Source: Nitrospirota bacterium | GTDB lineage: Bacteria; Nitrospirota; JACRHJ01 | Direction of reading: 5' to 3' | DNA: 64,000 bases | NCBI GenBank assembly: GCA_021784575.1 | Contig: JAJYHX010000001.1 | Span: 413,917 to 477,916, forward strand | Part shown: positions 23,110 through 64,000 of the stretch, one piece after another | How the letters are laid out: every line of letters begins with the position of its first letter | Position numbering within the stretch: the first letter of the stretch is position 1 | Program-made: the position numbers and the translations under genes | The notes under the pieces: generated by a model | What the model was told of the DNA's origin: nothing | Seen by the model: the letters and a program-made list of their open reading frames with translations, nothing else | Databases searched by the model: none

Positions 23110-23466
23110 AATGCACAATTATCGCCCTCACTAATGGCAGTGTCAAATAAAGGTTTTTTTATTAATTTGCCAGTCGGACCGCGCCCTGTTTTACCCCCGG
23201 AATCACACCCTGCCCGACGCCCGGTTTTTGTCCCAAAATCACGCCGTTCCCAGCACCCCCTTTTTGGCCAGAAATTGCCCCAAAACGGCCCGTTTTCGAG
23301 CCGCTTTCGATGCCGCCCGAAAAACTCTATTTTAACTTATTTTTTCTTTAATAATCAGTTTGTTGTGTAGTTAATCCGGAATAACCACTAACAATGAATT
23401 TCGCCTACCGATGAGGATTGCTCAATGGCGTTCAGGTCGAAGTATTAGTAAATAGCATCGCCATTC

Positions 23467-23510
23467 ATCCCCCTCTTAAGATAAGAGGGGGAACGAGGGG
23501 GCGTTATGAC
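23467..23510. repeat. MITE-like palindromic repeat family C (CCCCTCT-TAAGATAA-GAGGGGG ... GGGGGCGTTATG), copy 1
   Basis: atccccctcttaagataagagggggaacgagggggcgttatgac; near-identical to 63771..63812; related copies 23866 and 25316. Confidence 0.65.
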
Positions 23511-23670: not shown

Positions 23671-23865
23671 ACGACAGGCAGCCGCGGAGGCTTGGCCAAG
23701 ATTCCGGTTGAGGTGTTCGGGAATAACGGGCGGCGGCATTATCTCCTTGACATTTCTTTAATTCTCCAATAAAATCCATCCTTCCCGTAATATGGGAAGG
23801 CGCGGAGGTGCGCCCTTTTTGCTGCGGCGCCAAAAAGGCCGGGGCGTGATATAATTTTCATAACT

Positions 23866-23908
23866 CCCCTAATCCCCTCTGAATCTTAAGAGGAGAGCCG
23901 GGGGGGGT
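23866..23908. repeat. Family C-related palindromic repeat immediately upstream of ffh
   Basis: taactcccctaatcccctctgaatcttaagaggagagccgggggggg (cccctct-N-taagagg palindrome). Confidence 0.45.
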
Positions 23909-25291: not shown

Positions 25292-25375
25292 TATTTTAAT
25301 AACGCCACCTTAATCCCCCTCTTGTCTTAAGAGGGGCGAAAGAGGAGCAAAGATAATTTAGAAGGAGGTGATTGA

Positions 25376-28075: not shown

Positions 28076-28124
28076 TAATAGACGGCCCGAAAATACGCTA
28101 TTCGTGTTTACGAAAAATAGCGGC

Positions 28125-28210
28125 TGTTATTCCCGCGAAAGCGGGAACCCGGCGTCTTTTGTCATTCGATGGGAAGTCTCCGGGCCCCCGTTTCCACGGG
28201 GGTGACGAGC
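28125..28210 (+). repeat. MITE-like repeat family A copy upstream of rplS
   Basis: ctgttattcccgcgaaagcgggaacccggcg...ccgggcccccgtttccacgggggtgacgagcc. Confidence 0.6.
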
Positions 28211-37551: not shown

Positions 37552-37681
37552 TCGTTTTCTTTGGAGTATCAAGGTATTGAGAGATTATGGAATCTATAAA
37601 TTTCGACAAGGAAGGGAGGTGAAGATTTTTTAGGGAGAAGTATCGTTAGCGCATTTTTTTCAATCAAACAGGAGAGTAGAG

Positions 37682-40609: not shown

Positions 40610-40640
40610 TGGGTTGTGCCGGAAACTGACAACCATGACG

Positions 40641-40671
40641 AAAGGAGGGCCGCATGGCCCTCCTTTTTTTA
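40641..40671 (+). terminator. Rho-independent terminator after cytochrome A
   Basis: aggagggcc-gcat-ggccctcct followed by TTTTTTT. Confidence 0.75.
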
Positions 40672-40684
40672 AGGACGCAAAGGG

Positions 40685-40713
40685 CACGTCCTGATTGACT
40701 TGCGGAGCATTCT
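40685..40713 (+). promoter_or_regulatory. Near-consensus sigma-70 promoter upstream of the PPIase gene (TTGACT-17 nt-TATTAT)
   Basis: ttgacttgcggagcattctcctgtattat; -35 at 40685..40690, -10 at 40708..40713. Confidence 0.5.
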
Positions 40714-40817
40714 CCTGTATTATACCTAAGGCAAATTGCCGTTATTCCGGAAAGCGTTATGGGGAAGCGGCGTACCGGAGTTGGTTGATTAAAACAGCGT
40801 TTTGGAGGTTTTAAAAA

Positions 40818-42398
40818 ATGCGTCTCCCTGACAGAAAAAAATGGCTGACGGCGCTCCTGGCCGGATTGGTGATTTTGTCCGCTTTGAGCCAGGGCTGCGT
40901 CAGAACCCGACATTTCGGCAAGGGAGTGCTGGCGACCATCGATAATCAACCGCTTACCGTGGAAGAGTATAAAATCGTTGTCGGGAGGATACCGACGGAT
41001 TTCAAGAAAAGAAAGCGCAGGCTTCAGCAGATGATAAGCACGAGGCTCCTTGCGGAAGAGGCGCTTGCGAAAGGCTATCTCGGGACGTCCGCGGTTTACT
41101 GGGGCATGCAGAGGTTTTATTACTTCAGGCTGCCCGAACTGTTAAAGTGGGATGTCTACAATAAAATCAAGGTGGACAAGAACAAGCTGGACGCCATAAG
41201 AAAGGCAATGAATCTCCAGACGGTGGTGCATGTCAAGATGCTTGTCGCGCCGACGATAGGGAGGGCGCAGGCGGCGCTTAGCGACCTCGAAAAAGGCGAG
41301 AAATTTGAAGACGTGGCGGCAAAGTATACGGTCGTGAAGTCGGATGTCAGGCACGAGATAAGCCTCGACGATTCTCTTTATCCCATCGGGGTCAGGGCGA
41401 TATTAAACCGCACGAAACCCGGCCAGCTCACGCCGCCGATGAAGCTTGACATCGGCTACGCCGTGATGCAGGTGCAGTCGAAAGACGACCCGGCCGCCGT
41501 ATGGAAGTCCGTGGAAGACAGAATGGCGGGGAACCTGAAACAACAGGAAATGAAAAAAGAGATGGCGGATATACTTGCCCGGCTTCGTTCCACCGCCAAG
41601 ATAAAGATATATTCACAGAAGAACAAGCAAGGACAGACAATATATACCGGCGCGGAGGTCAACGGCATAAATATAAACATGAACCCGCGCCTCTTCAAGC
41701 GGCAGAACAACCCTCATTTCGCGCACACGATGATGAACGCCCAGACACTGATGGCAGCGCTCAACGAAAGAATCAACGACATACTTTACACCGAGGAGGC
41801 GAAGGCGCGCGGCCTCCAGTACAACCCAAGGTTCAGGGAAGACGTGCGGCTGAAGAGGGAGGAGGTGCTTGCGGATTGTTACCTTGAGGCGATGGTAGGA
41901 AACAATACCGCAACTCCGCAGGATATAGAGAACTATTACGAAAAATATAAAAAGAGACACGAACAGAACCGGCTTGCGCGCATAAGCCACATACTGCTTC
42001 CGAGCGAGAGCCAGGCGGAGACGGTTCTCTCAGAATTGAAAAAAGGAAAGGATTTCGCCCGGCTTGCAAAAGAAATGTCGCTCGACCTGCCGACAAAAAA
42101 CGCCGGCGGCGTTGTCGGTTTTATCGATCCGAAAACCCTGAAGGAACCGATGAAGAGCGTTATCATGGGAATGAAGCCCGGAGAGATAAGCGGGATTGTA
42201 AAAGGCCCGGCTGGGTACGAAATAGTGAAGGTGACCGAGTGGAAAAACGAGATCGTGCCGCCGCTTTCCGAGATAAAGGACGAGATGACAAACAGGGTAC
42301 TCTTGAACAAGCGCTCGGACAAAGTGACGGCGCTTTATAAGGTGGTTTACGCAAAGCACAAGGTCGAAATAAACGAGCAGCTTCTAAAGTCGCTGTAA
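40818..42398 (+). CDS. Periplasmic parvulin-type peptidyl-prolyl cis-trans isomerase (SurA/PrsA/PpiD-like chaperone), probable lipoprotein
   Basis: 526 aa; signal plus Cys (LVILSALSQGC); SurA-N-like region; PpiC rotamase domain (ARISHILLPSESQAETVLSELKKGKDFARLAKEMS...GGVVGFI). Confidence 0.65.
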   Translation: MRLPDRKKWLTALLAGLVILSALSQGCVRTRHFGKGVLATIDNQPLTVEEYKIVVGRIPTDFKKRKRRLQQMISTRLLAEEALAKGYLGTSAVYWGMQRFYYFRLPELLKWDVYNKIKVDKNKLDAIRKAMNLQTVVHVKMLVAPTIGRAQAALSDLEKGEKFEDVAAKYTVVKSDVRHEISLDDSLYPIGVRAILNRTKPGQLTPPMKLDIGYAVMQVQSKDDPAAVWKSVEDRMAGNLKQQEMKKEMADILARLRSTAKIKIYSQKNKQGQTIYTGAEVNGININMNPRLFKRQNNPHFAHTMMNAQTLMAALNERINDILYTEEAKARGLQYNPRFREDVRLKREEVLADCYLEAMVGNNTATPQDIENYYEKYKKRHEQNRLARISHILLPSESQAETVLSELKKGKDFARLAKEMSLDLPTKNAGGVVGFIDPKTLKEPMKSVIMGMKPGEISGIVKGPAGYEIVKVTEWKNEIVPPLSEIKDEMTNRVLLNKRSDKVTALYKVVYAKHKVEINEQLLKSL

Positions 42399-42423
42399 CA
42401 TCAGCACCGAGGTTTACGCACTA

Positions 42424-44052
42424 ATGGGTAGTAAGATGTTCACGAGAAACAAGCTGGTTGCCTTGGCGGCGGCTTCGCTTCTCTTTATTCTAAGTGTTGT
42501 TGCCGCATTTCCCGCGCAGGACTCCGTCAAGCCTCCGATATGGGTTGGCATCTACATCGCCGCAGAGAAGGTGGGGCTTAAGTGGACGCCGGTCAAGGGC
42601 GCTGTACGGTATAAGATATACCGTTCCATTTCCAGCGGCGGCCAGTACAACCTCATCGCGTCAACTACGGACGACTCTTACATCGACCCCACGGTCCTCA
42701 TAGGGGAGACCTACTACTACGTCCTCAAGTCCGTCGGAGCCGGCAGCAAGGAATCGGGTTATTCCGAAGAGCGTTATATAAAGGTGCCGGTCGTCAAGGA
42801 GACCGTGCCCGTCCAGCCGCCGGAATGGGTTGGCGCGCTGGTGGGAAGAAGAAGGATAAGGCTCGCCTGGAATCCCTCCGCCTCGAAGGACGTCCTCGCA
42901 TATAACGTCTACAGGAGCGCCGACCCAACGAAGGGTTTTCAGCTCATCGGCTCCACTCAGGACACCAGCCTCACCGACACGGACATAAAAGAAGGCGAGA
43001 CATACTACTATGCCGTCTCCGCCCTGGATAGAAATTTCAGGGAGACAAAGCTCGGAAAGGTGCAGACCGTCCGGTATGCGCCTTCGGAGGGGAAACCGGG
43101 CGTCGGGGCCGTCCGGCCAGGCGCGTCCGAGATGCCGCCGCGGATTATACCGACAAGGCTGACTATCAGGCGCACCCGGCGGGTGGGATATATCCTGAGG
43201 TGGAAGAACCGCAGGCCGCTTTTTTCTCCGACGGATGTCGTCCTTGGCAAGGACGGGAAGATATACGTATCTGATACCGGCGACAGCATGATACAGGTCT
43301 TCAAGCCGGGAGGCGCCTTCATACGGTCCATCGGCAAGTTCGGGACAAAGCCTGGGCAGTTCGAGAAGCTCCTCGGCGTGGATGTCAACGACAAGGACGA
43401 AGTCCTCGCCGTTGACGCTTATACCGGCACGATACAGAAGTTCGACAAGAAGGGCCGTCTCATAATGTTCAAGAAGATGCTTGATGACAGCAAGGCCATC
43501 GCGCTTGACCTTGGACGCAAGAAGCCGGTGGAGGTCTTCGGCATAATAAAGGGCCTCTTCGCCCCGGACGGGAACCTGTACATAATCGACAACTTCAACG
43601 ACTGCGTCGAAATTTATTCGCCGACCGGCAAATATATAAAGACGTTCGGAGGCAAGGGAAGGCAGGACGGGAAGTTCCTGTCTCCCACCTTTGCCATATT
43701 CGGGAAAGACGGGCATCTCTACGTGTCCGATTGCATGAACGCGCGCGTCCAGGTGTTCGACAAGGACGGACACTTTCTGTGGAAGTTCGGCGGGTACGGA
43801 AATATCGCCGGGACATTCGGCAGGCCGAAGGGCATCTGCATCGACAAGGCCGGCAATATATACGTCTCGGATTCCATGTCCAACGCGATACAGGTGTTCG
43901 ACAGGCACGGCAGGTTCAAGTACGCCCTGGCGAACAGAATGGGCAAACAGATTGATATGGCCACTCCGAACGGTATAGCCATCGACAAAGACAAGCGCAT
44001 CTATATCGTCGAGAAGCTGGTGAACCGTATCCAGATCAGACAGGTCGAGTAG
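42424..44052 (+). CDS. Secreted NHL-repeat beta-propeller protein with two N-terminal FN3-like domains (paralog 2)
   Basis: Signal peptide; FN3 signatures (RYKIYRSISSGGQYNLIA...ETYYYVLKSV; YNVYRSADPTKGFQ...ETYYYAVSALD); NHL blades (GKIYVSDTGDSMIQVFKPGGAF, GNLYIIDNFNDCVEIYSPTGKYI, GHLYVSDCMNARVQVFDKDGHFL, GNIYVSDSMSNAIQVFDRHGRF, KRIYIVEKLVNRIQI). Confidence 0.7.
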   Translation: MGSKMFTRNKLVALAAASLLFILSVVAAFPAQDSVKPPIWVGIYIAAEKVGLKWTPVKGAVRYKIYRSISSGGQYNLIASTTDDSYIDPTVLIGETYYYVLKSVGAGSKESGYSEERYIKVPVVKETVPVQPPEWVGALVGRRRIRLAWNPSASKDVLAYNVYRSADPTKGFQLIGSTQDTSLTDTDIKEGETYYYAVSALDRNFRETKLGKVQTVRYAPSEGKPGVGAVRPGASEMPPRIIPTRLTIRRTRRVGYILRWKNRRPLFSPTDVVLGKDGKIYVSDTGDSMIQVFKPGGAFIRSIGKFGTKPGQFEKLLGVDVNDKDEVLAVDAYTGTIQKFDKKGRLIMFKKMLDDSKAIALDLGRKKPVEVFGIIKGLFAPDGNLYIIDNFNDCVEIYSPTGKYIKTFGGKGRQDGKFLSPTFAIFGKDGHLYVSDCMNARVQVFDKDGHFLWKFGGYGNIAGTFGRPKGICIDKAGNIYVSDSMSNAIQVFDRHGRFKYALANRMGKQIDMATPNGIAIDKDKRIYIVEKLVNRIQIRQVE

Positions 44053-44054
44053 CC

Positions 44055-46181
44055 GTGAAAAAGCTTGTTTTGATTCTTGCCGCAATAGTAAGCGTAATCG
44101 CCGCGAAAGAAGTTTTCGCGGGGGTTATCGGTTCTCCGCACGATATAGCCGCCCAGAAGTATGTTGTAGCCGGCGAGCAGCAGTGGACCAAGAACGTGTG
44201 CAACTACTGCCACGTTCCGCACAAGGCGAAGGGCGCGATGCTCTGGCCGACGCCTCCTCCGGCGCTCAAGGGCTGGGGCAGGGTAGGGCCTTTGTGTTAT
44301 TCCTGCCACGACGGCGTGGCGATTGTCTCTCCCTACGTGGATGCGTCCCAGACGGTTTTCAATCCGAAGAGCCACGGACTCAAGCTTGCAGACCTCCCGG
44401 CGGGCGACGACGCATCCGGCTCCGGCCTGCCGTATACCAACGGCAGCCAGGACCACATCGAATGCAGCACGTGCCATAATCCGCACGACGACACGCACAG
44501 GCCCTTCCTCCGGGTGGACATCAACCAGCTCTGCGAGAAGTGCCACAAGCACCGCGAGAACTCCGGCTACGGCATAAACAACGCCGAGGGAACCCATCCG
44601 GTTCACATGCCGCTTAAAGACCAGACTGGCGGCCGCATCCCGCTTGAGCCCATCAGCAGCTTCATGGTGCCGTTCCCGATGCCGTATCCAAAAGAGAACG
44701 GGAAAAACACGTACGGCGTGCACTGGACGCTTGGCGGGCATCTCTCGGATGGCTCAACCGGAACGGTGGAATGCACCACCTGCCACAGCATACACGGCAG
44801 ACTGCCCTCCGGGCCGTTCTACAAGCTTCTCAGCGTCGATCCTGTGAAGGACGACGCGGACAATTTCTGCGAGGGCTGCCACAGGGGCAAGAGAGCCGAC
44901 GGACTGCCGTCCCCGCCATATCCGAACCCGGGCGGCACGACAGCCCCGCTCAGTTATCATCCCGCCGACAACGACACCTGCAACGGCACGACCGACACGA
45001 CCAACGGCAGGATTGTGGCGATAAACGAGCCGGACGGATGGGTATTCGGCAAGCACGGAGAGGTTCTCTGCACGACCTGCCATGAACCGCACGGCGCCCG
45101 GAAAAACTCTCCGATACTGAGGCAGGACCCGGATTCGCCGACGTTCTGCGAGTCGTGCCACTCGGTTCCGTTCCCGCATCACCCGACCGGAGACCTCACC
45201 GGCAATTCAAACATAAATTCGGGCGACGCGCACGCCAGCACGAGAGAGATTGTAATACCCCCGTCCTTTCCCGCCGGGATCACGTACGGCGACCCGAAGC
45301 CCGGCTGGCTGTACTGCTCAAGCTGCCACAGGGCGCACAACGCCAACTGCACCCCGATTCTGGTAATAGACTGTCGAAACGGCACCGCCTGCGACATATG
45401 CACTATGTGTCATCCGAAGTACAACCCTACATGGCAGACTGACGACAACTGGAAGTCTACCCATTTCATGGGAGATCCGACGGCGTTTACAGTGCCCTAC
45501 ATAACATTGCAGGGCGATCTCGAAGGAACACAGCCGGGGTATTACGACCAGTATCCGCCCATGCACATAGGAAAATGGCCGGAATCGGGGCTGGAGTCGC
45601 AATACGGAGGGCCGAGCGGCAAAGAGATAACGTGCTGTTCGTGCCACAGCTTCGACGTGGGTAACATTACCGCCGGAAACGCCGACCAGTCTCCGTACCT
45701 TGGGCCGATACTCGCTCCCGGATACCAGCCGACTGACCTGGTTTCAGGGCTTCTTGCGAGGGCCGGCAGTTACAAGGAATGGCTGCCGAGCGACGTGCAG
45801 GATGTTATAATCGGCGGCAACCGCGGCACCGAACAGATAGTTGACAAATACCTCTGCACAGGCTGTCACGGCCTGACGCCGAGGACGGACGTGTCGTCGG
45901 GCTGGGAAGGCTTTACGCATCCCATGATGAATGCCGACGGCTCCACCCTGGCGAATATAATTGCGCCTGCCACCCTGACTTTCAACCAGCATGTAAACTG
46001 CGAGTCCTGCCATACCCCGCACGAAGCCGACAGCAGGGGCGGTTTCCTGATACTAAAGACTGCGGCCCTGAAAGACCCGATGGCAAACAGCGCGCCGCCG
46101 GATCCCTACCGCATCTACAAGGATCCGGTCAATTACATCGAGTTCGCGCCGCTTTGCGAACTCTGCCACATAGGATATTGA
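44055..46181 (+). CDS. Secreted multiheme c-type cytochrome, 708 aa, 14 CXXCH motifs in paired arrangement (cytochrome B)
   Basis: GTG start 3 nt after NHL2 stop; signal peptide MKKLVLILAAIVSVIAAKEVFA; GSPHDI motif; CNYCH, CYSCH, CSTCH, CEKCH, CTTCH, CEGCH, CTTCH, CESCH, CSSCH, CTMCH, CSCH(CCSCH), CTGCH, CESCH, CELCH. Confidence 0.75.
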   Translation: MKKLVLILAAIVSVIAAKEVFAGVIGSPHDIAAQKYVVAGEQQWTKNVCNYCHVPHKAKGAMLWPTPPPALKGWGRVGPLCYSCHDGVAIVSPYVDASQTVFNPKSHGLKLADLPAGDDASGSGLPYTNGSQDHIECSTCHNPHDDTHRPFLRVDINQLCEKCHKHRENSGYGINNAEGTHPVHMPLKDQTGGRIPLEPISSFMVPFPMPYPKENGKNTYGVHWTLGGHLSDGSTGTVECTTCHSIHGRLPSGPFYKLLSVDPVKDDADNFCEGCHRGKRADGLPSPPYPNPGGTTAPLSYHPADNDTCNGTTDTTNGRIVAINEPDGWVFGKHGEVLCTTCHEPHGARKNSPILRQDPDSPTFCESCHSVPFPHHPTGDLTGNSNINSGDAHASTREIVIPPSFPAGITYGDPKPGWLYCSSCHRAHNANCTPILVIDCRNGTACDICTMCHPKYNPTWQTDDNWKSTHFMGDPTAFTVPYITLQGDLEGTQPGYYDQYPPMHIGKWPESGLESQYGGPSGKEITCCSCHSFDVGNITAGNADQSPYLGPILAPGYQPTDLVSGLLARAGSYKEWLPSDVQDVIIGGNRGTEQIVDKYLCTGCHGLTPRTDVSSGWEGFTHPMMNADGSTLANIIAPATLTFNQHVNCESCHTPHEADSRGGFLILKTAALKDPMANSAPPDPYRIYKDPVNYIEFAPLCELCHIGY

Positions 46182-46189
46182 GGGATACA

Positions 46190-48481
46190 ATGCTGCGGAC
46201 GGCGAAACATATCATGCTTGTTCTGACGGTCGCGGCGGCGCTGCTCCCGGCTGTTGCGTACGCGGCAATAGGCGGCACGGAATCGAAACACAACATGACA
46301 CTGTTAGGCGGCTACCCCTACGGCCAGAACGTATGCGACGCATGTCATTCGTCACATTTCGACTCGGGCGTTAGGCTTTGGGCGGCGGGCAGGCAGACGG
46401 AACTCGCTAACGCAAAGAATCAGTCTCAGGACGAACTGGCCGGCGGGAATTATCCGGGCATATACCTCTGCCTCGACTGCCATAGCACGGCAGCGTCGGT
46501 TCCATCGGCGCCTGCCTCCTGGGCAAAGCCCGCCGCCGAGAACGTCGTCACGCACTCGACGCTCGAAATGAAATTCGCCGGGTATTCCACGAAATACGAG
46601 TCTTTTACGATGCAGTGCACCACCTGCCATAATACGCATCAGTACTGGAACGGCACGTTCCAGCCGGGCCAAAACGGATACATGATACGCTCCACCATCA
46701 TCACCCCGAACAGCGGCGTTAAGAAGGTGGTCTTCTACGCGATATCCGGCCCGAACTCCATGGGGAACGACTATACGCCCCATACGTCCATATGCGAGGT
46801 CTGCCATACCAGGACCACTTACCACAACAACGCGTCATCCAATAACCCGCATTACGACGGGCAGAAATGCACTCTCTGCCACAACCACCAGAACGGTTTC
46901 AGCGCGAGGTGGACATGCACCTCCTGCCACGGGAACCCGCCGACGAGCCAGCCGCTGCTTGTGGGCCGCTCCCTGAAGAACGGTTATCCGCCCACAGGCG
47001 AGACCTCGGCGGGTATGCACGCCTTCCACTTCTACTCCACGAAGGTTTATTCCACAAACGGGTCCTTCAGCGTCGGTTATTCCTGCGACTACTGCCACAA
47101 GGGCGGCATGAACGATACCGGGCTTACCGACAAGATTATAGAAGTGAAGTTCTCGGATTTTAGCCGCTACACATCCGGCAGTTTCGACGGCTTTGCTCCG
47201 ATAAGCGGCTATACCTTCAGCCCCGGCAATACCACCGGCGGGACGCAGGCCTGCTCCAACACCTATTGCCACGGCAACTTCTACGGCGGGAACAAGACCA
47301 ACAAGCCCGTATGGACAAACGCCGCGAGCGGGGCATGCGGCACCTGCCACGCCACCGCCCCACCGGCCCTTCTCGACCACAGCGTGCACCTAACGGCCTC
47401 GTGGGGACCGAAGGCGTCCTGCGACGACTGCCACGGCGCCAACGCCTCCATTGGCAGCAACACCGGGCACGTGGGCGGGTTCGTCATATTTGCAGACTTG
47501 AAGAACTTCTCCACCACGACCGTTTGCAACGGGTGCCACGGAAGCGGCGCGGCGATGGCAAAGGCATACTGGGGGCACACCAGCATCAGGTCGCAGGACT
47601 CCTGGTGCGAGTCCTGCCACAACGGCAACAGCCCGGCGTCCGTCGTGAATACCGCCGCCGGGACAGGCGGAGTCAATGTTACCGCGCAGAATGTCGTCGG
47701 CGACAAAACGACCTACGGTTACGACTATACCGGCCACGGCGCGCCCCCGGGCGCGATCCAGTGCACCGCATGTCACGACATAAAGTCTCAGCACGTGGGC
47801 CCAGCCTCGTTCTCGTACAAGGCGTCGTCCAATAACTACAGGTCCGCCTTCAGGATGGGTTCGGTGTCCAATACCGTCCCGCTGCTCGGCAGCTATACGT
47901 CTTCGGCGGCGGCGCTGTGCTATTCCTGCCACAGCCAGACGAAGATACTGGGTATGCCCGCCGAGGGAAAACCGTCATCCATGCACGTCCACAACCCCAT
48001 ATACATTTCCTCCTGGGCCACGGATTTCCGCAATACCTCGACGATACTCGGACTTTACAGCGGCGGCGACTGGGACGCCACCGGCAGCAGCGCCGACGAG
48101 CCCACCAACATCCACTGGAACCACCTTGACGACTACGGGAGCACCAAACGCTACCCGTCGGCCTACATATACGACTCCGACGGCGACGGAGCCGGAGACT
48201 CCCGCATCGTCTGCGATACATGTCACGACCCGCACGGCACGCAGCAGCCCGCGATGGTATACGATGCGTTCGACCTGAGGACTTATTCCGCCCCGCCCAA
48301 TCCCGGCTACAGATGGGTAAACGGAAGCGGATATGCGACGAACAGGTGCATTTCCCCCGGCAACTCATGTCATACGGCGGGAGATTTTCCTGGAACCGCG
48401 GGCATGAGGTGGTATCGGCAGACCCTGTCGAATACCACAACCGGCGCCCCGGTGGGACTTACGGCGACTCAGCTGCAATAG
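46190..48481 (+). CDS. Secreted multiheme c-type cytochrome, ~764 aa, ~15 CXXCH (one CX4CH) motifs (cytochrome C)
   Basis: ATG at 46190 with RBS gaggg; signal peptide MLRTAKHIMLVLTVAAALLPAVAYA; CDACH, CLDCH, CTTCH, CEVCH, CTLCH, CTSCH, CDYCH, CSNTYCH, CGTCH, CDDCH, CNGCH, CESCH, CTACH, CYSCH, CDTCH. The track ORF start at 46154 overlaps cytochrome B. Confidence 0.75.
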   Translation: MLRTAKHIMLVLTVAAALLPAVAYAAIGGTESKHNMTLLGGYPYGQNVCDACHSSHFDSGVRLWAAGRQTELANAKNQSQDELAGGNYPGIYLCLDCHSTAASVPSAPASWAKPAAENVVTHSTLEMKFAGYSTKYESFTMQCTTCHNTHQYWNGTFQPGQNGYMIRSTIITPNSGVKKVVFYAISGPNSMGNDYTPHTSICEVCHTRTTYHNNASSNNPHYDGQKCTLCHNHQNGFSARWTCTSCHGNPPTSQPLLVGRSLKNGYPPTGETSAGMHAFHFYSTKVYSTNGSFSVGYSCDYCHKGGMNDTGLTDKIIEVKFSDFSRYTSGSFDGFAPISGYTFSPGNTTGGTQACSNTYCHGNFYGGNKTNKPVWTNAASGACGTCHATAPPALLDHSVHLTASWGPKASCDDCHGANASIGSNTGHVGGFVIFADLKNFSTTTVCNGCHGSGAAMAKAYWGHTSIRSQDSWCESCHNGNSPASVVNTAAGTGGVNVTAQNVVGDKTTYGYDYTGHGAPPGAIQCTACHDIKSQHVGPASFSYKASSNNYRSAFRMGSVSNTVPLLGSYTSSAAALCYSCHSQTKILGMPAEGKPSSMHVHNPIYISSWATDFRNTSTILGLYSGGDWDATGSSADEPTNIHWNHLDDYGSTKRYPSAYIYDSDGDGAGDSRIVCDTCHDPHGTQQPAMVYDAFDLRTYSAPPNPGYRWVNGSGYATNRCISPGNSCHTAGDFPGTAGMRWYRQTLSNTTTGAPVGLTATQLQ

Positions 48482-48492
48482 GAGAGTCGGCT

Positions 48493-50928
48493 ATGAAGAT
48501 GAAAATGACGAAGACAAAAACGGTTCTACTTTTTGCGGTGTTCGCGCTTGTTGGCGTTGCCGCAGGGCTGCCCGCCGAGGCTGCGCCGGCGACCGCGCGT
48601 ATCGTGCCTGCGCGGATGCGTCCGCAGATGGCGGCGCGCGTGTTTGCGCCGGAAACGTCCGTGCATATGCAGAGGTTCGCGCCCGGGCATATGTCCATGC
48701 CCATGCGTATGCCGGCGCAGATTCGTCCATGGCAGAGGCCCGCGCCCGGGCAGGCATCCACGCCCATGCGTATGCCGGCGCAGATTCGTCCGATGCAGAG
48801 GCCCGTGCCCGCGCAGACCAGTCCGGTGCGGAGGTCCGCGTCCGGGCAGACCAGTCCGCAGGCGCCTGCGCAGAAGCCCGTCTCCGGCCAAACGTCCGCC
48901 GCCGGTCAAACCGCCCCGGCCGGTAAAAGCGGCGGGCCTGGCATAAAGCTTCAATGGAAGGCCCCCGCCGGCATTGCCGTGTCGAAGATAGCGGGGTACT
49001 ACATCCTGCGCGCCGACAAAGAGCTTGGGCCGTATAAAAGAATAAACGAAAGCCCTGTCAAGACGCTTTCGTACGACGATAAGGGCCTGAAAGACAAGGC
49101 GGGGTATTTCTACGAGGTTTGCACGGTTTTGCAAAACGGCACGATGAGCCGCCCCACGAAGCCTGTCGGGATAATTGTCGGAAGCAAGCAGACGTACGCG
49201 CCGCCGCGGATAGAATCCTTTGGCGCGGATTCCGCCGGGAAAGTCAGATATGCCGGAGAGACCGCGTTTTTCAACATGAGCGGGACTCCGGGAGACAACG
49301 CGGTTTTTTCCATCGAAGGTCAGACAGGCGGGATAACGACGCCCGGCACGCAGATAACGATGAAGGAGATAACGCCCGGCGTTTACAGGGGCGCATACAC
49401 CGTGGCGCGCGGCGTCCGGATAATAAACGGTTATGCGGCGGCTACATTGTCGGATGACAAGGGAGGGCAGGCTGCCGCAAAGACCGGCGCCAACCTCGAT
49501 TTTATCGGGATGGCCAAACCGGCAATCTCCGGACTTTACGCAAGCCGGATTACAAGCGACAGCGTGTGCGTCGGCTGGCCCCGCGTCGACACCGGCGAAG
49601 GATATTACAACCTGTATCGGGACACCTCGCGCATAGTGGACGCCAGCAAACTTACCCCGCTGTCTGCGAACATGAACACCAGCGTATCCACATTCATAGA
49701 CGATTCCGTAAAGGCGGGGACAAGCTACTACTATGTCCTGGTTTACGACGATCTTTCGGGCGCGCCGCTCGCCATAAGCGATAACCTGGAAGTCAATGTC
49801 CCGTGGATGCATGTTTCATTCGGAGCAAACTCCGTGCATGAAGACTCCGGAGGGAAAACCCTGAAGCCCGGAGACGTCCTCGGCGTAACCGTGAACACGG
49901 CGGCCGGCGGCAAGGCGGCATTCAGTATAAGCAATACGGCCAGCAACCTTGCGCTGACGGAAGGCCCGGCCGGGGTCTACAAGGGCGCGTGGACGATAAA
50001 GGAGGGCGACGGGATATTCAAGAGCAGGGTGGCCGTGAATTTTACGGCCCCTGACGGCAGACAGCATTCCGCGCTGTCCGCAACGCTTGTCTCCGTGGAC
50101 GCCCCGAAGGCAAATCAAGTGAAGCCCGCCGTTCTTGCGGCCTCCGTGAAAACCATTGGGGGCAGGAATCCGGTACTGGTCAATAGCAGAAATCCAGCCG
50201 GGATTAATAAGAAGCTGCCCGGAGCCGGGAAGCCGGTTATCGCCGGGATTAAAGGCAACGTCAGGGTAATTCCGGGGCCGCCGGGCAGGCCGGCAGCCGG
50301 AAAGAAACTTACCGTATTGCCCGGGAAGGCGGGAAGAACGTCAATCATCACAACCGGAGGGCTTGCCTCAAGACCCGGCGGTGTCATCGGCGCGGCGCAG
50401 GCGGCGAAGAGCGCATCAATCATCACGGGCGGGAGGCCTGACTCAATACCGCGTGGGCTGCCGTATGAATTTCAGAAGCCGGAACCCCGGCCATCTCCTG
50501 CTCCGGGAATGCATTCTCCGGCTTCGGGAATACAAAGGGCCGGCGGCTCGTTTCCGGGCAGGCCGGCGGAAAGCGCCGGAACCCCGGCGAACGCTGTGAA
50601 CCCGATTGGCGTTGTAAACCCGGCAGGCACTGTGGCCCCGATTGGCGTTGTGAACCCGCTTGGCGCTGTAAACCCGGCAGGCACTGTGGCCACGATTGGC
50701 GTTGTGAACCCGCTTGGCACGGTGAACGCGGCGGGCGCGGGGAATGCTGCCGCGGGGCCTGTCTCAAGCCTTCCGGCGCCGTCGCATGGGAAGAAAAAAC
50801 CGGGAACTCCGCAGTCTCCGGCTTCGGGAACACAGTCTCCGGTTCCGGGAATGCAGTCTCCGGTTCCGGGAATGCAAAAGGCCGGCGGCTCGGTTCCGGG
50901 CCACGGCGTTTCGGCCTTTGGAGACTGA
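48493..50928 (+). CDS. Large repetitive secreted/surface protein (~811 aa) with FN3-like and Ig-like domains, N-terminal Met/Pro/Arg-rich repeats and C-terminal NPxGxV repeats
   Basis: Signal peptide MKMKMTKTKTVLLFAVFALVGVAAGLPAEA. Repeats MPMRMPAQIRP(W/M)QRP x2; FN3-like (GYYILRADKELGPY...; GYYNLYRD...SYYYVLVYDD); two Ig-like modules; C-terminal tandem (NPIGVVNPAGTVAPIGVVNPLGAVNPAGTVATIGVVNPLGTVN) mirrored by ~60-nt DNA tandem repeats at ~50590..50720 and ~48700..48830. Confidence 0.55.
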   Translation: MKMKMTKTKTVLLFAVFALVGVAAGLPAEAAPATARIVPARMRPQMAARVFAPETSVHMQRFAPGHMSMPMRMPAQIRPWQRPAPGQASTPMRMPAQIRPMQRPVPAQTSPVRRSASGQTSPQAPAQKPVSGQTSAAGQTAPAGKSGGPGIKLQWKAPAGIAVSKIAGYYILRADKELGPYKRINESPVKTLSYDDKGLKDKAGYFYEVCTVLQNGTMSRPTKPVGIIVGSKQTYAPPRIESFGADSAGKVRYAGETAFFNMSGTPGDNAVFSIEGQTGGITTPGTQITMKEITPGVYRGAYTVARGVRIINGYAAATLSDDKGGQAAAKTGANLDFIGMAKPAISGLYASRITSDSVCVGWPRVDTGEGYYNLYRDTSRIVDASKLTPLSANMNTSVSTFIDDSVKAGTSYYYVLVYDDLSGAPLAISDNLEVNVPWMHVSFGANSVHEDSGGKTLKPGDVLGVTVNTAAGGKAAFSISNTASNLALTEGPAGVYKGAWTIKEGDGIFKSRVAVNFTAPDGRQHSALSATLVSVDAPKANQVKPAVLAASVKTIGGRNPVLVNSRNPAGINKKLPGAGKPVIAGIKGNVRVIPGPPGRPAAGKKLTVLPGKAGRTSIITTGGLASRPGGVIGAAQAAKSASIITGGRPDSIPRGLPYEFQKPEPRPSPAPGMHSPASGIQRAGGSFPGRPAESAGTPANAVNPIGVVNPAGTVAPIGVVNPLGAVNPAGTVATIGVVNPLGTVNAAGAGNAAAGPVSSLPAPSHGKKKPGTPQSPASGTQSPVPGMQSPVPGMQKAGGSVPGHGVSAFGD

Positions 50929-53697: not shown

Positions 53698-53749
53698 GAT
53701 GGGGTGGCGGGAAAATACCGTGATTCCCGGATGACGATGTTTCATTGTT

Positions 53750-53832
53750 CGTCATTCCCGCGAAGGCGGGAATCCAGTGACTTTAAAAATCGCTGGGCCC
53801 CCGTTTAAAGACGTCCGGGGATGACAGGCTTT
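53750..53832 (+). repeat. MITE-like repeat family A copy in the spacer upstream of NHL paralog 3
   Basis: cgtcattcccgcgaaggcgggaatccagtgactttaaaaatcgctgggcccccgtttaaagacgtccggggatgacaggc. Confidence 0.6.
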
Positions 53833-55381: not shown

Positions 55382-56624
55382 GCCTGTAATTGTCCTCTTT
55401 GCGCTGTTTTTGTTTGTCTTAGCAATCCCTCTCGCAAGGTCAGCGGCTGCCGGAACGAAGGCGCGGAATGGTGTCACATCCGGGGCCGGCTCTCCGCGGG
55501 ACCGCTCCCACGCAGGGTCAAAGACCGACAAAGTGAAGACGCAGGGCAAAGGCGTGCTCGTGCTCGTGCCCGAGAACCTTTCCGCCGTCTACTCCGAAAC
55601 CGAGCTCTCCGGGGCCCGGCGGCGCGAGGTCTCTGTCCAATCCACCACAGAAGGAGAGATTTCGGTGGTGGGAATAGCGGACGGCAAGCCGGAGATAGAG
55701 ATAGTAAATAACGGCAGGTCCAAGGTAACGCCGGTATTTTACGGCAAGTATTTCCACGCGCAGATTATCCTGTCGCTCGGCGAGAACATGATAAGCGTGC
55801 GCTGGAGAAGGAAGGGCGGGGACTGGAATGTCCAGACCATTTCGCTTTTCCGCTCCTCCAGGATGCTCGGCGCGCCGGTTGTAAACTACCCGCCTTATTC
55901 CTTTCACACTCCCAAGAACGAAGAGCAGTGCCAGGAGTGCCACCAGATGCAGCTTACGCGTAAGGAAATAGAAACGGCAAGGGACTTGAGCTGCCTTAAG
56001 TGCCATGCCGACCTGACGAGCAATATTTACGTCCACGGCCCGGTAAACGTGGGCATATGCACGGTATGCCACGACCCGAACAGCAAGCCGAACAAATACA
56101 AGGTGGAGGAAGGCGACAAGACACTGTGCTACTCCTGCCACACGGACAGGGAGAAGATAGACGACAAGATGAAGCGCGAGCACGGCCCCGTAGGCGCGGG
56201 GCTTTGCACTGTATGCCACGACCCTCACGGCTCGCCATTCAGGTATCAGCTTGTTAAATCCAAAAACGAGATATGCCTGATGTGCCATCAGAGCGATGCG
56301 AACCACTGGCTAAACCAAAGCAGCCTTCATCCGCCGTTTAAAAAGGGAGAATGCTACAGGTGCCACGACCCTCATTCCGCGAACTATAAATACAACCTCA
56401 AGGCCGACAGGAAGCATATCTGCTTGATTTGTCATACCCTTCCCATACCCGGCCATCTTCACGACCCGGGCAAGGTGCCGCTTTTCAAGCTGCCGCCGGA
56501 TTTTCCCCTTACAAAACATGGGAAAACGATGTGTCTGACCTGCCACTCCCCACATGGCGCCATAGGCCCGCACCTGACCCGCCGGAGGGGTTGCAAGGGC
56601 TGCCATCCGGACAAGGACTCGTAG
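55368..56624 (+). CDS. Periplasmic decahaem c-type cytochrome (~418 aa, 10 CXXCH; MtrA/OmaB-like size class) (cytochrome D)
   Basis: ATG at 55368 overlapping NHL3 end; signal/TM MSRNKPVIVLFALFLFVLAIPLARSAAAG; CQECH, CLKCH, CTVCH, CYSCH, CTVCH, CLMCH, CYRCH, CLICH, CLTCH, CKGCH. Confidence 0.7.
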   Translation: MSRNKPVIVLFALFLFVLAIPLARSAAAGTKARNGVTSGAGSPRDRSHAGSKTDKVKTQGKGVLVLVPENLSAVYSETELSGARRREVSVQSTTEGEISVVGIADGKPEIEIVNNGRSKVTPVFYGKYFHAQIILSLGENMISVRWRRKGGDWNVQTISLFRSSRMLGAPVVNYPPYSFHTPKNEEQCQECHQMQLTRKEIETARDLSCLKCHADLTSNIYVHGPVNVGICTVCHDPNSKPNKYKVEEGDKTLCYSCHTDREKIDDKMKREHGPVGAGLCTVCHDPHGSPFRYQLVKSKNEICLMCHQSDANHWLNQSSLHPPFKKGECYRCHDPHSANYKYNLKADRKHICLICHTLPIPGHLHDPGKVPLFKLPPDFPLTKHGKTMCLTCHSPHGAIGPHLTRRRGCKGCHPDKDS

Positions 56625-56837: not shown

Positions 56838-57175
56838 CGCCCCTCCTTTGAAGTGGATTTATTTCCTCAATACTACCACTAAATTTCTATAAATCAATTT
56901 GTTTTTCATGGAGTTTCATGCGCCGCGAAACGCACCATCCCATCGCCCGGTTTTTGGGCGCGGAACAGATCTAAAAAATGGCCGTTTTCGGGCAATTTCG
57001 GGGCAAAACGGGGGCGCGGGGAGGGGACGTTTCCCTGCGGTAATTTAGTAAATTCCTCTTATTCCACAATGTGTTGCGGTTCATATAAATATTTATCGCG
57101 TTTATATACTTGACAAACCCAAATAATTCTGGTAGAGTTTAAACATTCTAAACATTCATTCGTCTAAAGGGAGCT

Positions 57176-59344: not shown

Positions 59345-59633
59345 GGAAAAACATAAGGGGGCCGAGAAGCCCATCTCCCTTTATCCCCTCGGTTTCGAGG
59401 ATGCTATGAAGGCTATTCTTCAAACCCCGCATGAGTCAAAGCGCGTAAGTCCTAAAAAACAAAAAGAAAAAAAAGGTAAGCAAGGGTAATTTCTTCTATA
59501 TCTGTTAGAATTCGCTCCTATTCCCTTCCCGCTTGGGTTTGTCAAATATACAATCGCGATATTTATCGATAAGCAAGGCCCCGTTTTGCAACTATTTGAG
59601 AAATAAGGGTAAATTTGTGCTATATTTTGAGAT

Positions 59634-62793: not shown

Positions 62794-64000
62794 ATGGTCA
62801 AGGGTCTTAAAATCATCGGCGTGGAGGCGGGCGGCACGGCTCTTGATGTCGGAATAGGGGAGGGGGACAGGATAATCTCCATAAACTCCGCGCCCGTGCC
62901 CGACTACCTCGCGTACCGCTATCTTATCGCCTCGGAGGAAGTCGTCCTGCTGGTCGGGAAGAAGTCCGGCGGTGAAGTCGAGATAGAGATTGAAAAAGAC
63001 GAGGACGACGACCTGGGGATTATCCCCGCCCCGATGAAGGTGCGCTCCTGCAACAACCGGTGCGTGTTCTGTTTCGTGGAGCAGATGCCGAAGGGCCTGA
63101 GGCGGACCCTTTATGTTAAGGACGAGGATTATCTCCACAGCTTCCTGTACGGCAACTACATCACGCTTACGACGCTGAAGGACGTGGATTACGAGCGTAT
63201 AATCCGCGAGCGCCTCTCGCCGCTTTACGTCTCCGTCCACGCCACGGACGACGGCCTCCGCCGCTTCCTGCTCGGGAACTGCAAGGCCCCATCCATTCTC
63301 GACGGCATAAAGAAACTGACGGAAGGCGGCATAGTCCTTCATACGCAGGCGGTTGTCGCTCCGGGGATAAACGACGGCGCGGCGCTTGTCAGGACGGTGG
63401 AGGATATGGCGGTTTTTTATCCCGGCGTGCAGTCTATTGCGGTAGTTCCCGTGGGGCTTACAAGGCACAGGGAAAGGCTCTATCCGCTCCGGACGTTCAC
63501 GAAAAGGGAGGCCGCGCGCCTCCTCGACGGGTTGGAGCCGCTCAGGAAGAAGTGCAGAAGGAAATTCGGCGTAAGTTTCGTATATCCGTCGGACGAATTT
63601 TATCTGAAGGCCGGGCGGGATTTCCCGAAGGCCGGGGAATACGACGGCTACCCTCAGTTCGACAACGGTGTCGGGCTGACGCGGGATTTTCTGGACGAGT
63701 TTAAGCAGATTGGGAAAAGAGGCGCCTCCATTGCCTGTAATTCCGAGCGACAGCGAAGAATCCACCGTTACCCCCCTCTCAAGATAAGAGGGGGGACAGG
63801 GGGGCGTTATGGAGTCAGGAAGATAATCCTCATAACCGGCAAATCTTTTGCGCCGATTCTGAAAACCATCGCAAAGGAAATCGAGACGATGAACGGCCTG
63901 AAACTTTCCGTCCTGCCGGTAAAGAACAATTTATTCGGCGGGAAGGTGACGGTCGCCGGGCTTCTGTCCGGCGGGGACATAATAGCGGCCCTGAAGGGCA
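62794..64000 (+). CDS. DUF512-family protein (PDZ-like N-terminus plus radical-SAM-like Cys cluster), partial at window end, carrying an in-frame MITE-C insertion
   Basis: MVKGLKIIGVEAGGTALDVGIGEGDRIISINS...CNNRCVFCFVEQMPKG...; reading frame stays open to the window end; not in the ORF track because no stop is reached. Confidence 0.6.
   Translation, partial: MVKGLKIIGVEAGGTALDVGIGEGDRIISINSAPVPDYLAYRYLIASEEVVLLVGKKSGGEVEIEIEKDEDDDLGIIPAPMKVRSCNNRCVFCFVEQMPKGLRRTLYVKDEDYLHSFLYGNYITLTTLKDVDYERIIRERLSPLYVSVHATDDGLRRFLLGNCKAPSILDGIKKLTEGGIVLHTQAVVAPGINDGAALVRTVEDMAVFYPGVQSIAVVPVGLTRHRERLYPLRTFTKREAARLLDGLEPLRKKCRRKFGVSFVYPSDEFYLKAGRDFPKAGEYDGYPQFDNGVGLTRDFLDEFKQIGKRGASIACNSERQRRIHRYPPLKIRGGTGGRYGVRKIILITGKSFAPILKTIAKEIETMNGLKLSVLPVKNNLFGGKVTVAGLLSGGDIIAALKG
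63771..63812 (+). repeat. MITE-like repeat family C copy lying inside the DUF512 coding sequence, in frame
   Basis: cccccctctcaagataagaggggggacaggggggcgttatgg, encoding ...YPPLKIRGGTGGRYG...; near-identical to the intergenic copy at 23467..23510. Confidence 0.6.

Follow-up and report, generated by a model that had tools for sequence, protein, structure and literature searches.

REP sequences are short imperfect palindromes that occur in high copy number, lie mostly outside genes and are species-specific, and the RAYT proteins are Y1 transposases of the IS200/IS605-like type. Other points of reference for the sequence described here include free-standing homing endonuclease genes whose products have a Vsr-like/PD-(D/E)XK fold, and the attC sites of integrons, whose consensus cores are RYYYAAC (R'') and GTTRRRY (R'). 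The closest described parallel is offered by the Rickettsia palindromic elements (RPEs), which are reported to be approximately 150 bp in length and which a review presents as the established example of palindromes inserted in frame (Ogata et al. 2000, cited in PMC10969869). The same review states that bacterial MITEs (ERIC, BOX and others) also occur inside genes, and that they occasionally form in-frame fusions with ORFs (PMC10969869; Delihas 2007, cited therein).

We analysed a 64,000-nucleotide stretch of DNA from a Nitrospirota bacterium (hereafter the window), at the end of which a gene for a radical SAM enzyme with a DUF512 domain carries a repeat of this general kind (Table 1). The initial annotation had drawn attention to a 42-nucleotide sequence at positions 63771-63812, a member of a palindromic repeat family termed family C. 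This sequence is present exactly as quoted and is read in the frame of the DUF512 ORF, where it introduces neither a stop codon nor a frameshift, and the peptide given for it (YPPLKIRGGTGGRYG) is also correct. We consider it probable (approximately 0.75) that the 42 nucleotides form the central part of a single copy, some 47 nucleotides in length and standing alone, of a selfish, RPE-like palindromic element that is tolerated by its host as a neutral, disordered loop.

Family C and the RPEs are both dispersed palindromic repeats that are found between genes as well as in frame within unrelated conserved genes, where they add a peptide and leave the ORF intact. In both cases the insertion sites fit the fold of the protein, which for family C is judged from the placement of the DUF512 copy in a loop that is predicted to be disordered. 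The two nevertheless share no sequence relationship, and family C copies are only ~45-57 nt long rather than ~150 bp. Moreover, family C is not confined to one genus, as six phyla contain an identical hairpin core, and it is tied to the ends of DUF559 genes, an association for which we know of no RPE counterpart. Given that the host belongs to Nitrospirota rather than to the Rickettsiales, that the copy is ~47 nt long, and that neither Rfam nor the literature yielded a match, we describe the element as one that works like an RPE rather than as an RPE. Specifically, Rfam returned no family for the whole window at the gathering threshold, and only a chance match to Pab91 (E = 0.53) for positions 63650-63900 in E-value mode. 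Literature searches with the element sequence, the peptide and the 3' motif retrieved only a single paper, which is unrelated and matched the string of the 3' motif by chance, and those on palindromic repeats in Patescibacteria or Nitrospirota, or on DUF559 together with repeats, found nothing relevant.

The host enzyme and its surplus loop

The host ORF extends from its ATG to the end of the window as 402 codons free of stops and frameshifts, and it represents only the 5' part of the gene. The encoded protein gives Pfam matches to Radical_SAM_2 (8.7e-57), to a C-terminal DUF512 domain (3.5e-50) and to PDZ_6, and it carries the cluster motif CX3CX2C as CNNRCVFC, with C86, C90 and C93 invariant across the ortholog alignment. 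Orthologues in Nitrospirota are 439-474 amino acids long, the closest one in the protein collection being 90% identical, and a homologue with a solved structure is available (9CG1, match 5e-92). DUF512 is a cobalamin-binding domain (PMC11659888).

An alignment with orthologues, which had been proposed as a check, establishes the segment as an insertion relative to the DUF512 family. Structure 9CG1 aligns to residues 7-306 and 347-453 of the full-length orthologue P0001, and its linker has 14 residues compared with 40 in P0001; the linker is similarly short in the distant orthologues P0023, P0028, P0045, P0059 and P0120. The residues are common to close relatives only and are encoded by the repeat itself, rather than recurring in unrelated genomes as native sequence might. 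The size of the insertion had been underestimated, however. The DUF512 match in the host spans 185 residues for 159 profile positions, and the surplus over the family amounts to about 26-27 residues (A314-G340). The surplus is ~27 residues rather than the ~14 initially proposed because a second palindromic element, unrelated to family C, abuts the family C copy. This second element is present at the same site in the relatives L001, L005, L006, L008 and L010, in either a short form or a 55-nt long form. Other long-form copies are located in L009 (286-338) and L001 (11363-11417), and no further copy of the short form was found within the 64-kb window.

Table 1. Coordinates of the repeat copies and associated genes in the window.
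Feature	Position	Strand	Support
Host gene: PDZ / radical SAM / DUF512 (cobalamin-binding) enzyme, TIGR03279 type	62794..64000	+	ORF and Pfam
Upstream half of the insertion: degenerate copy of the second palindromic repeat, type TGTCATTC[CT]GAGCG...GAAGAATCC; translates to ACNSERQRRIH	63733..63765	+	
Family C solo copy, in frame (R325-G340): shortened left arm, hairpin, spacer, 3' motif	63765..63811	+	nhmmer E 6e-12
Hairpin core CCCCCCTCT-CAAGATA-AGAGGGGGG; 9-bp G/C-rich stem, 7-nt loop	63771..63795	+	
3' motif GGGGGGCGTTATGG	63799..63812	+	
Family C intergenic copy, closest relative within the window	23462..23509	+	E 9e-15
Family C diverged copy, 26 nt upstream of ffh and in opposite orientation to it	23858..23898	-	E 1e-7
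Family C copy, 33 nt upstream of rpsP and in opposite orientation to it	25299..25343	-	E 1.4e-9
ffh	23924-25252		
rpsP	25376-25645		

The hairpin core of the DUF512 copy, which differs from the consensus CTCTTAAG by a T>C change, appears in both the MFE and the centroid structures that were predicted. The predicted folding energy is -33 kcal/mol over 91 nt for RNA (z -2.6) and -12.7 kcal/mol over 56 nt for DNA (z -2.4). Two of the three forward frames of the family hairpin run into TAA, and the DUF512 gene reads the sole stop-free frame (PPLKIRGG). We also considered whether the ATG within the 3' motif could serve as an internal start codon for the C-terminal domain, and rejected this option, as translation from it would not be in the host frame and would end after five codons (MESGR, then a stop).

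The insertion is located in the loop that precedes the first beta-strand of the cobalamin-binding domain. In the AlphaFold model of P0001 (mean pLDDT 83.5), confidence drops below 50 only at residues 109-121 and 316-340, and the latter stretch (CHSERQRRIRLSPPLKIRGGQGGRY) lies between a helix (296-322) and a strand (344-349). The proposal that the element is tolerated as a peptide insertion is in good agreement with this in-frame placement within a loop predicted from pLDDT to be disordered. The ~27 surplus residues would be best regarded as a repeat-derived loop and not as a conserved DUF512 feature, and we recommend that they be masked in alignments, domain models and structural work.

Family C copies and their association with DUF559 genes

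A family C profile representing 128 copies was used for an nhmmer search of the window, and four copies were found. The DUF512 copy had been called near-identical to the intergenic copy at 23467-23510. The two are certainly similar, matching at 36 of 40 nt (90%) over 23469-23508 (E = 2.6e-8), but near-identical overstates the resemblance, and a longer alignment of 55 nt gives 80%. When the 42-nucleotide sequence was compared with shuffled sequence, no match was obtained in 100 shuffles. The relatives reported at 23866 and 25316 are indeed situated just upstream of ffh and rpsP, and the sequences of related genomes hold additional family C copies, one of which is directly upstream of aroE in L001.

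Family members share an architecture that consists of a G/C-rich hairpin (CCCCCTCTTAAGATAAGAGGGGG), a spacer of 3-6 nt and the motif GGGG(A/C)GTTATGA. Among the matches listed, the exact hairpin core occurs in more than 116 genomic stretches and 26 viral contigs, and the phyla represented are Nitrospirota, Desulfobacterota, Patescibacteria, Chloroflexota, Pseudomonadota and Bacteroidota. The 3' motif was absent from the search pattern and is nonetheless present in 128 of the 174 copies among the matches listed. In other phyla, the arms of full-length copies read TAAC(N)CCCC and GGGG(N)GTTA; their left arm (TAACNCCCC) is missing from the DUF512 copy, and copies in the window have it in shortened form only (TTCAT/TTAC-CCCCC). 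In-frame copies were also found elsewhere in genes for transketolase (two copies), ParB, PfkB, Cas6, a nitrogenase-like protein (Oxidored_nitro), a cytidylyltransferase and a tyrosine recombinase (Phage_integrase), all of which were confirmed by Pfam, and these in-gene copies use only the three stop-free frames (PPLKIRGG, PPLILRGG and PSYLKRG). Thus, a single element family is common to at least six phyla, and it constitutes a concrete source of spurious peptides of the PPLKIRGG or PSYLKRG type, and of spurious small ORFs, in metagenome annotations. In-frame palindromic selfish DNA in housekeeping genes, which is best known from Rickettsia, would accordingly extend to free-living and candidate-phylum bacteria.

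As with MITEs, the copies are small repeats that do not code for protein by themselves and are occasionally fused in frame to host ORFs, and the full-length copies of other phyla have inverted arms. They differ from MITEs in that no consistent direct repeat indicative of a target-site duplication was detected around 27 full-length copies, in that no parent IS with a recognised transposase is known for family C, and in that its commonest unit is a single 'end' (hairpin + GGGGNGTTATGA) where a MITE has paired terminal inverted repeats.

Small genes for DUF559 proteins, which are Vsr-like nucleases, are bracketed by inverted copies of this module. Six intact and four decayed DUF559 genes (the latter in L035, L037, L092 and L119) are bounded by hairpin-GGGGAGTT, whose ATG is the start codon, and by TAACTCCCC-hairpin. 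RNase HII and other genes likewise begin at the ATG of the motif. The flanked protein matches the DUF559 family of Pfam (3e-37) and PDB entry 3HRL (6e-29). In an independent sample of 80 metagenome loci picked by similarity of the DUF559 protein alone, with flanks scored by a generic hairpin finder, the motif accompanied by a perfect hairpin of at least 8 bp was found at 43 of 69 upstream and 44 of 65 downstream gene ends (62-68%), compared with 0.3% and 2.1% at random positions. This reproducible pairing of the element with both ends of the gene opens the function of DUF559, a very widespread nuclease domain, to testing.

Family C resembles REPs in consisting of short imperfect palindromes of high copy number, most of them extragenic, and the placement of a small enzyme gene between inverted repeat copies mirrors the REP-RAYT-REP arrangement. 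However, the gene in question encodes a DUF559 (Vsr-like PD-(D/E)XK) nuclease rather than a Y1 transposase, the repeat core is common to several phyla whereas REPs are species-specific, and there is no conserved GTAG head on the 5' side of the hairpin. To our knowledge, DUF559 is not a known transposase. The units are also reminiscent of free-standing homing endonuclease genes in that a small, selfish-looking nuclease ORF lies between palindrome halves and decayed copies are common. They depart from these genes in showing no defined target gene and no intron or intein context, and in that the halves on either side are also encountered by themselves, in hundreds of solo copies; the nuclease activity of the DUF559 protein and its specificity are putative.

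With these distinctions in mind, we tentatively raise the possibility that an undescribed, cross-phylum family of 40-57-nt palindromes represents the inverted ends of DUF559 units, and that the DUF559 nuclease copies both the units and the solo ends. If true, this would be a DUF559-driven mobile element of an uncatalogued kind that has colonised coding sequences in frame, repeatedly, in six phyla. Neither the window nor the ~60 kb of sequence examined from relatives contains a DUF559 gene, and DUF559 is therefore only a putative mobiliser in this genome.

Inheritance of the insertion and competing explanations

The insertion had been interpreted as recent, a view that its distribution contradicts. 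The same element occupies the same codon position in orthologues of four lineages (the window, L001, L005 and L006), among which the 4-fold degenerate sites of the host gene differ by 25-42%. The full set that shares element and site comprises the window, L001-L004 (four assemblies), L005 and L006/L007, with orthologues at 82-90% protein identity, and recovery from independent assemblies indicates that we are dealing with an inherited allele and not an artefact. The element core diverges by 2-12% among orthologues, as compared with 25-42% at the 4-fold sites, and therefore it does not behave as expected of a pure neutral passenger; constraint at the sequence level, gene conversion by other copies or spread of the linker allele through recombination is needed. 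L001 and L005 are also unusually alike downstream of the linker.

A suggested role of the element as a source of protein variation gains a little from the observation that the linker varies strongly between lineages (96-189 nt, with differing repeat-like peptides), but the one recent exchange of alleles examined, between L005 and L008, points to recombination instead. This exchange is flanked by a ~600-nt tract of 5% divergence, whereas the remaining DNA is ~99.5% identical, which argues for homologous recombination, and we rejected fresh transposition as its cause in favour of import by this route. Alleles of the DUF512 loop appear to be exchanged by homologous recombination. No pair of filled and empty sites with clean junctions was found for the DUF512 site, and therefore transposition into this site is inferred rather than observed.

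In our preferred explanation, a selfish RPE-like element may have been copied once into a permissive loop in the ancestor of a Nitrospirota sub-clade, or may have spread among lineages by homologous recombination. It would then persist as a near-neutral passenger, with selection purging only those insertions that bring in a stop codon, cause a frameshift or damage the protein structure. The copying would be hairpin-directed, and might be driven in trans by the putative DUF559 (Vsr-like PD-(D/E)XK) nuclease.

Among the alternatives, the one we take most seriously, although we judge it rather unlikely, is that the insertion is functional, either because the hairpin regulates expression (through pausing, an RNase site or transcript stability) or because the loop has been recruited for enzyme function or partner binding. 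The conservation of the core far beyond that of synonymous sites and the predicted thermodynamic strength of the hairpin agree with such a role, as does the location of the module elsewhere directly before gene starts with its ATG as start codon, which suggests that intergenic copies act at the RNA level. However, wholly different sequences fill the same loop in L008, L009, L010 and P0007-P0027, distant orthologues carry no such segment, the loop is predicted to be disordered, and the ATG is here out of frame with its five codons; conversion or recombination can also explain the conservation. A MITE insertion that is recent, restricted to this genome and perhaps still polymorphic seems very improbable, given its shared position in lineages so far apart at 4-fold sites. 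Its appeal lies in the dispersed nature of the repeat and in the differing linkers of the close relatives L005 and L008, but the latter difference comes with the recombination-like tract of raised divergence.

We assign a similarly small chance to a site of site-specific recombination, attC-like as in integrons or of another kind (R''..AAC / L'' / variable hairpin / L' / GTT.. R'), the copies of which would reflect recombinase cassette traffic. Full-length copies (RTAAC(N)CCCC - hairpin - GGGG(N)GTTATGA) do recall the inverted AAC...GTT cores of attC, the element lies in the N-terminal part of tyrosine-recombinase genes at two loci (L104 and L114), and the DUF559 gene resembles a small cassette ORF. 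Nevertheless, RYYYAAC and GTTRRRY are matched only at AAC and GTT, and copies are single and dispersed, upstream of or inside housekeeping genes, rather than arrayed beside an integrase; even the densest cluster (L078) has no cassette-like ORF array. Furthermore, the hairpins flanking DUF559 genes are inverted, as judged by loop orientation, where site-specific integration would give direct repeats, and cross-phylum identity is not expected of the variable part of attC. That a native linker evolved in place and resembles the intergenic repeat by chance or convergence would fit the residues common to close orthologues, but is scarcely credible when the DNA matches intergenic copies at 90% identity, the same 21-mer and 3' motif recur in more than 100 unrelated contexts in six phyla, the segment is missing from more distant orthologues and 9CG1, and shuffling yields no match. 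Least plausible of all is a chimeric join within the gene, induced by the repeat during assembly or binning: short repeats are able to mis-join metagenome contigs, but the reading frame here is unbroken, both of its sides are colinear with the family, and independent assemblies from NCBI, ENA and Logan show the same arrangement.

The linker of other orthologues, which reads STFSLRKxxxAKRNG and for which no second copy was found in the ~1.4 Mb of sequence compared, contains an 11-bp perfect inverted repeat.

An inherited insertion in the DUF512 gene

The DUF512 gene carries, in-frame within a permissive loop, a dispersed palindromic element that is inherited and recurs in other genes and phyla. 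The 42 nt singled out in the initial annotation were located at 63771-63812, which is the only site in the window whether matched exactly or with up to three mismatches, and no match occurred in 100 dinucleotide-preserving shuffles. The host ORF begins with an ATG at 62794, four bases past the stop codon of an upstream AI-2E-transporter-like gene, and remains open for 402 codons to the window end. The insertion is tolerated in-frame as proposed, and its peptide had been read correctly. The product matches the Pfam families Radical_SAM_2 (8.7e-57), DUF512 (3.5e-50) and PDZ_6, with the DUF512 match spreading 185 residues over 159 profile positions.

A family C profile made from 128 copies and then run over the window yields four copies, including those expected in the rpsP and ffh leaders. 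The intergenic copy, previously described as near-identical to the DUF512 element, is related (36 of 40 positions identical at 23469-23508, E 2.6e-8) but similar only.

Repeat copies and other features (window coordinates unless a locus is named; L001-L010 are relatives with the DUF512 gene)
Feature	Location	Strand	Remarks
Family C copy	23462-23509	+	Profile search; intergenic
Family C copy	63765-63811	+	Profile search; inside DUF512 gene, downstream element
Family C copy	25343-25299	-	Profile search; 33 nt upstream of rpsP
Family C copy	23898-23858	-	Profile search; 26 nt upstream of ffh
Upstream element	63733-63765		TGTCATTC[CT]GAGCG...GAAGAATCC type; peptide ACNSERQRRIH
DUF512 3'-end TGTCATTCTGAG...GAAGAATC copies	L001 11363-11417; L005 ~6395-6425; L008 ~2776-2806; L010 ~1532-1562		
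Transketolase, Patescibacteria UBA10118	L018 ~1900-4000	-	703-codon ORF; two in-frame family C copies
GTCATTCCCGCGAAAGCGGGAATCC family copies	10116-10170; 25258-25312; 28121-28175; 53746-53800		8-bp stem, GAAA loop
GTCATTCCCGCGAAAGCGGGAATCC inverted pair	8666-8727 / 10135-10196		
Palindrome cluster	23510-23680		Dense, G/C-rich; CCCTCTCCC...GGGAGAGGG types
39-nt inverted repeats	57084-57122 / 59533-59571		A/T-rich; 82% complementary; 2.4 kb apart
49-nt inverted repeat pair	23248-23296 / 56974-57022		84%; 33.7 kb apart
Coding-type tandem repeats	17937-18240		33-nt period; AAG/GCC codon-rich (lysine/alanine-rich)
Coding-type tandem repeats	50490-50900		18-nt and 21-nt periods
CxxCH motif runs	~36400-48300; ~56000-56240		Many TGCxxxTGCCAC; NHL-like repeats

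In an alignment of 33 orthologue sequences, the linker at the insertion point is short in distant proteins (P0023, P0028 and P0039-P0120), and a Nitrospirota sub-clade has long, highly divergent sequences there. When the solved homologue structure 9CG1 is aligned with P0001, a full-length orthologue 90% identical to the window protein, residues 7-306 and 347-453 of P0001 are matched, and the linker comprises 14 residues in 9CG1 compared with 40 in P0001. PMC11659888 lists this entry, which is apparently the protein from Clostridium sporogenes; in that protein a PDZ domain (1-80) and a radical SAM domain (81-266) precede a C-terminal cobalamin-binding domain (PMC11659888). These short linkers support an insertion relative to the family, and native linker sequence is effectively excluded. 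The extra stretch in the window protein is A314-G340, larger than the ~14 residues first claimed, and its DNA consists of two abutting palindromic elements. The upstream element, in a short or 55-nt form, occupies the same site in L001, L005, L006, L008 and L010, and is found elsewhere in relatives as well. The downstream element, family C, sits at one and the same codon position in the window gene and in those of L001 (four independent assemblies), L005 and L006/L007. Given 25-42% divergence at the 4-fold degenerate sites of these genes, the shared position establishes that the insertion is inherited; it is not recent, and an assembly artefact is effectively excluded. The initial observation is confirmed, and its interpretation was partly right, being wrong on age and size. 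One orthologue, P0035 (320 aa, on a 433-kb contig), stops matching the family near residue 290, immediately ahead of the linker, and terminates prematurely; it probably reflects a frameshift or an assembly error at this repeat-rich site, or a pseudogene.

An AlphaFold2 model of P0001 made with 37 aligned sequences (mean pLDDT 83.5, pTM 0.79) has low-confidence segments only at 109-121 and 316-340. The latter is exactly CHSERQRRIRLSPPLKIRGGQGGRY, between a helix (296-322) and a strand (344-349), and on the basis of its low pLDDT the repeat-derived residues are predicted to form a disordered loop ahead of the strand that opens the Rossmann-like cobalamin-binding fold. Direct reading of the consensus CCCCCTCTTAAGATAAGAGGGGG reveals TAA stops in two of the three forward frames, and the DUF512 gene uses the sole open one (PPLKIRGG). 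The reverse strand offers two open frames, PPLILRGG and PSYLKRG, and every in-gene family C copy found is read in one of these three. Such use of stop-free frames would be the expected leftover of selection against stops.

Other linker alleles are present among relatives. A different repeat-like segment of 73-75 nt occupies the linker in L008 and L009, remnants of two elements are present in L010, and STFSLRKEKVAKRNG-like peptides characterize P0007-P0027. The DNA encoding these peptides holds an 11-bp perfect inverted repeat, and a search of about 1.4 Mb of sequence for a second copy of the STFSLRKEKVAKRNG-type linker DNA found none. L005 and L008 are ~99.5% identical across 3.6 kb, yet their linkers differ, with family C (54 nt) in one and the 75-nt segment in the other. 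This swap is immediately preceded by a ~600-nt tract with ~5% divergence (alignment columns 1500-2200) that ends at the swapped linker. The simplest reading of these alignments is that a diverged allele was imported by homologous recombination, and the abutting divergent tract disfavours fresh transposition. Among four orthologues, the 41-nt element core differs by 2-12% versus 25-42% at 4-fold sites (P 5e-3 to 5e-7), which may be due to constraint on the sequence itself, to gene conversion from other copies or to recombinational spread of the linker allele. Such spread would fit the unusual similarity of L001 and L005 just downstream of the linker. The 3' end of the gene was observed in the relatives, as the window stops short of that point; there, a further copy of the TGTCATTCTGAG...GAAGAATC palindrome supplies the last residues and stop (…ILSF*, CTG TCA TTC TGA), and so repeats also remodel this end of the gene.

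Family C in other genes and phyla

An exact scan for CCCCTCTYAAGAYAAGAGGGG in one genome per species gave more than 116 stretches among the matches listed, where our own arithmetic for uniform composition predicts ~4 by chance. The listed matches are distributed among six phyla: Nitrospirota, Desulfobacterota (Geobacteraceae and relatives), Patescibacteria (Uhr-, Falkow-, Buchanan-, Dojka- and Saccharibacteria), Chloroflexota (Dehalococcoidia), Pseudomonadota and Bacteroidota. The sequence is also present in a further 26 viral contigs. The motif GGGG(A/C)GTTATGA, which was absent from the search pattern, follows within a few bases 3' in 128 of the 174 copies among the matches listed, sometimes preceded by a nested extra hairpin. 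Full-length copies in other phyla are imperfect palindromes of 49-85 nt (RTAAC(N)CCCC - spacer - hairpin - spacer - GGGG(N)GTTA), and the left arm is shortened in the window lineage. No consistent target-site duplication was found in 27 full-length copies, and no Rfam family matches the element. In Seramator thermalis (Bacteroidota; L078, 3157-6379), five same-orientation hairpin copies within 3.2 kb are nested in a longer conserved unit (…GGCAAGTGnGATC-GACT-hairpin-TACCGCCGAAGGCGGGGAGGTGTTATGATG…) among duplicated small ORFs. This is a larger composite repeat, and its host, a cultured isolate, could be used for experiments.

Element-spanning ORFs with at least 60 codons on either side were collected, and their identities were confirmed by Pfam. 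With the four DUF512 genes added, at least 13 of the 174 copies among the matches listed are in-gene; this is far under coding density, and thus most copies are intergenic. Regardless, in-frame occupation is recurrent. Copies reside in a Nitrospirae ParB, whose ParB_N match the insertion divides into two parts, a NadD-like cytidylyltransferase (PPLKIRGGSGGRYE), a PfkB kinase, Cas6, a nitrogenase-like Oxidored_nitro protein and two tyrosine recombinases. The extreme case is the L018 transketolase, a housekeeping enzyme full of palindromic elements, in which two or more further peptides also look repeat-like (…HPSPLPETRFAARRASSGQALTKERE… and …SNSPAADVQDSSTALGMT…). This in-frame behaviour matches that of Rickettsia palindromic elements, as reviewed in PMC10969869.

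Association with DUF559 genes and possible origins

In ~20 of 140 copies among the matches listed, a long ORF starts at the ATG of the 3' motif, and several of these ORFs encode ~123-residue DUF559 proteins (Pfam 3e-37), for which the closest solved structure is the 'endonuclease-like protein' 3HRL (6e-29). The upstream end reads hairpin - GGGGAGTT - ATG, with the ATG as start codon, and the stop-codon end reads (C/G)(A/G)TAACTCCCC - hairpin in inverted orientation. The hairpin loop contains the stop codon in L033 and L052, and in L022 the gene is bracketed in the same way by a variant hairpin (CCTCCCCTTAAnTTAAGGGGAGG) at each end. Remnants of decayed DUF559 genes lie between hairpin ends in L035, L037, L092 and L119. 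For an ascertainment-free sample, 80 metagenome loci were chosen by DUF559 protein similarity alone from more than 530 relatives listed. The motif together with a perfect hairpin of 8 bp or longer is present at 43 of 69 usable upstream ends (random positions, 0.3%) and 44 of 65 usable downstream ends (2.1%). Where the flanking stems vary, the changes compensate each other (CCCCTCTTA/TAAGAGGGG, CCTCCCCTTA/TAAGGGGAGG, CCCCCCTTA/TAAGGGGGG), and the exact window-type hairpin occurs in five listed upstream flanks. The DUF512 loop element is homologous to these unit ends. Because DUF559 genes are bracketed in this manner, family C is their 'left end' module, with solo copies in the window. No DUF559 gene was found in the window or the relatives' loci, and a literature search revealed no link between DUF559 and repeats of this kind.

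We favour an origin in which selfish DNA was copied or recombined into the DUF512 loop and would persist as a near-neutral passenger, since only stop-free, loop-located insertions would survive. The leading idea, suggested by the flanking arrangement, is hairpin-directed copying, possibly by a DUF559 nuclease acting in trans. It is possible that the hairpin or loop is instead functional, as conservation of the element might indicate, although the different or absent loop sequence in sister lineages speaks against this. An attC-like recombination site is unlikely given that copies are dispersed, that DUF559 flanks are inverted and that no arrays are formed, the L078 cluster included. As a phenomenon, the element works like Rickettsia palindromic elements or intragenic MITEs. 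Family C is undescribed, our literature search returning only a chance 3'-motif string in an unrelated paper, and it is unusual in its cross-phylum identity, small size and pairing with a DUF559 nuclease gene.

Other repeats and features in the window

The dense palindromes that follow family C in the region separating a hypothetical gene from ffh are read through by a mechanical ORF and look like a repeat 'graveyard'. The separate GTCATTCCCGCGAAAGCGGGAATCC family has at least 4-6 window copies, one of which directly adjoins the family C copy upstream of rpsP. The 39-nt inverted repeats could be insertion element ends or divergent regulatory regions, and the 49-nt pair is probably a further dispersed repeat family. 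Coding-type tandem repeats occupy two regions, and the runs of CxxCH haem-binding motifs point to a large multihaem cytochrome gene cluster.
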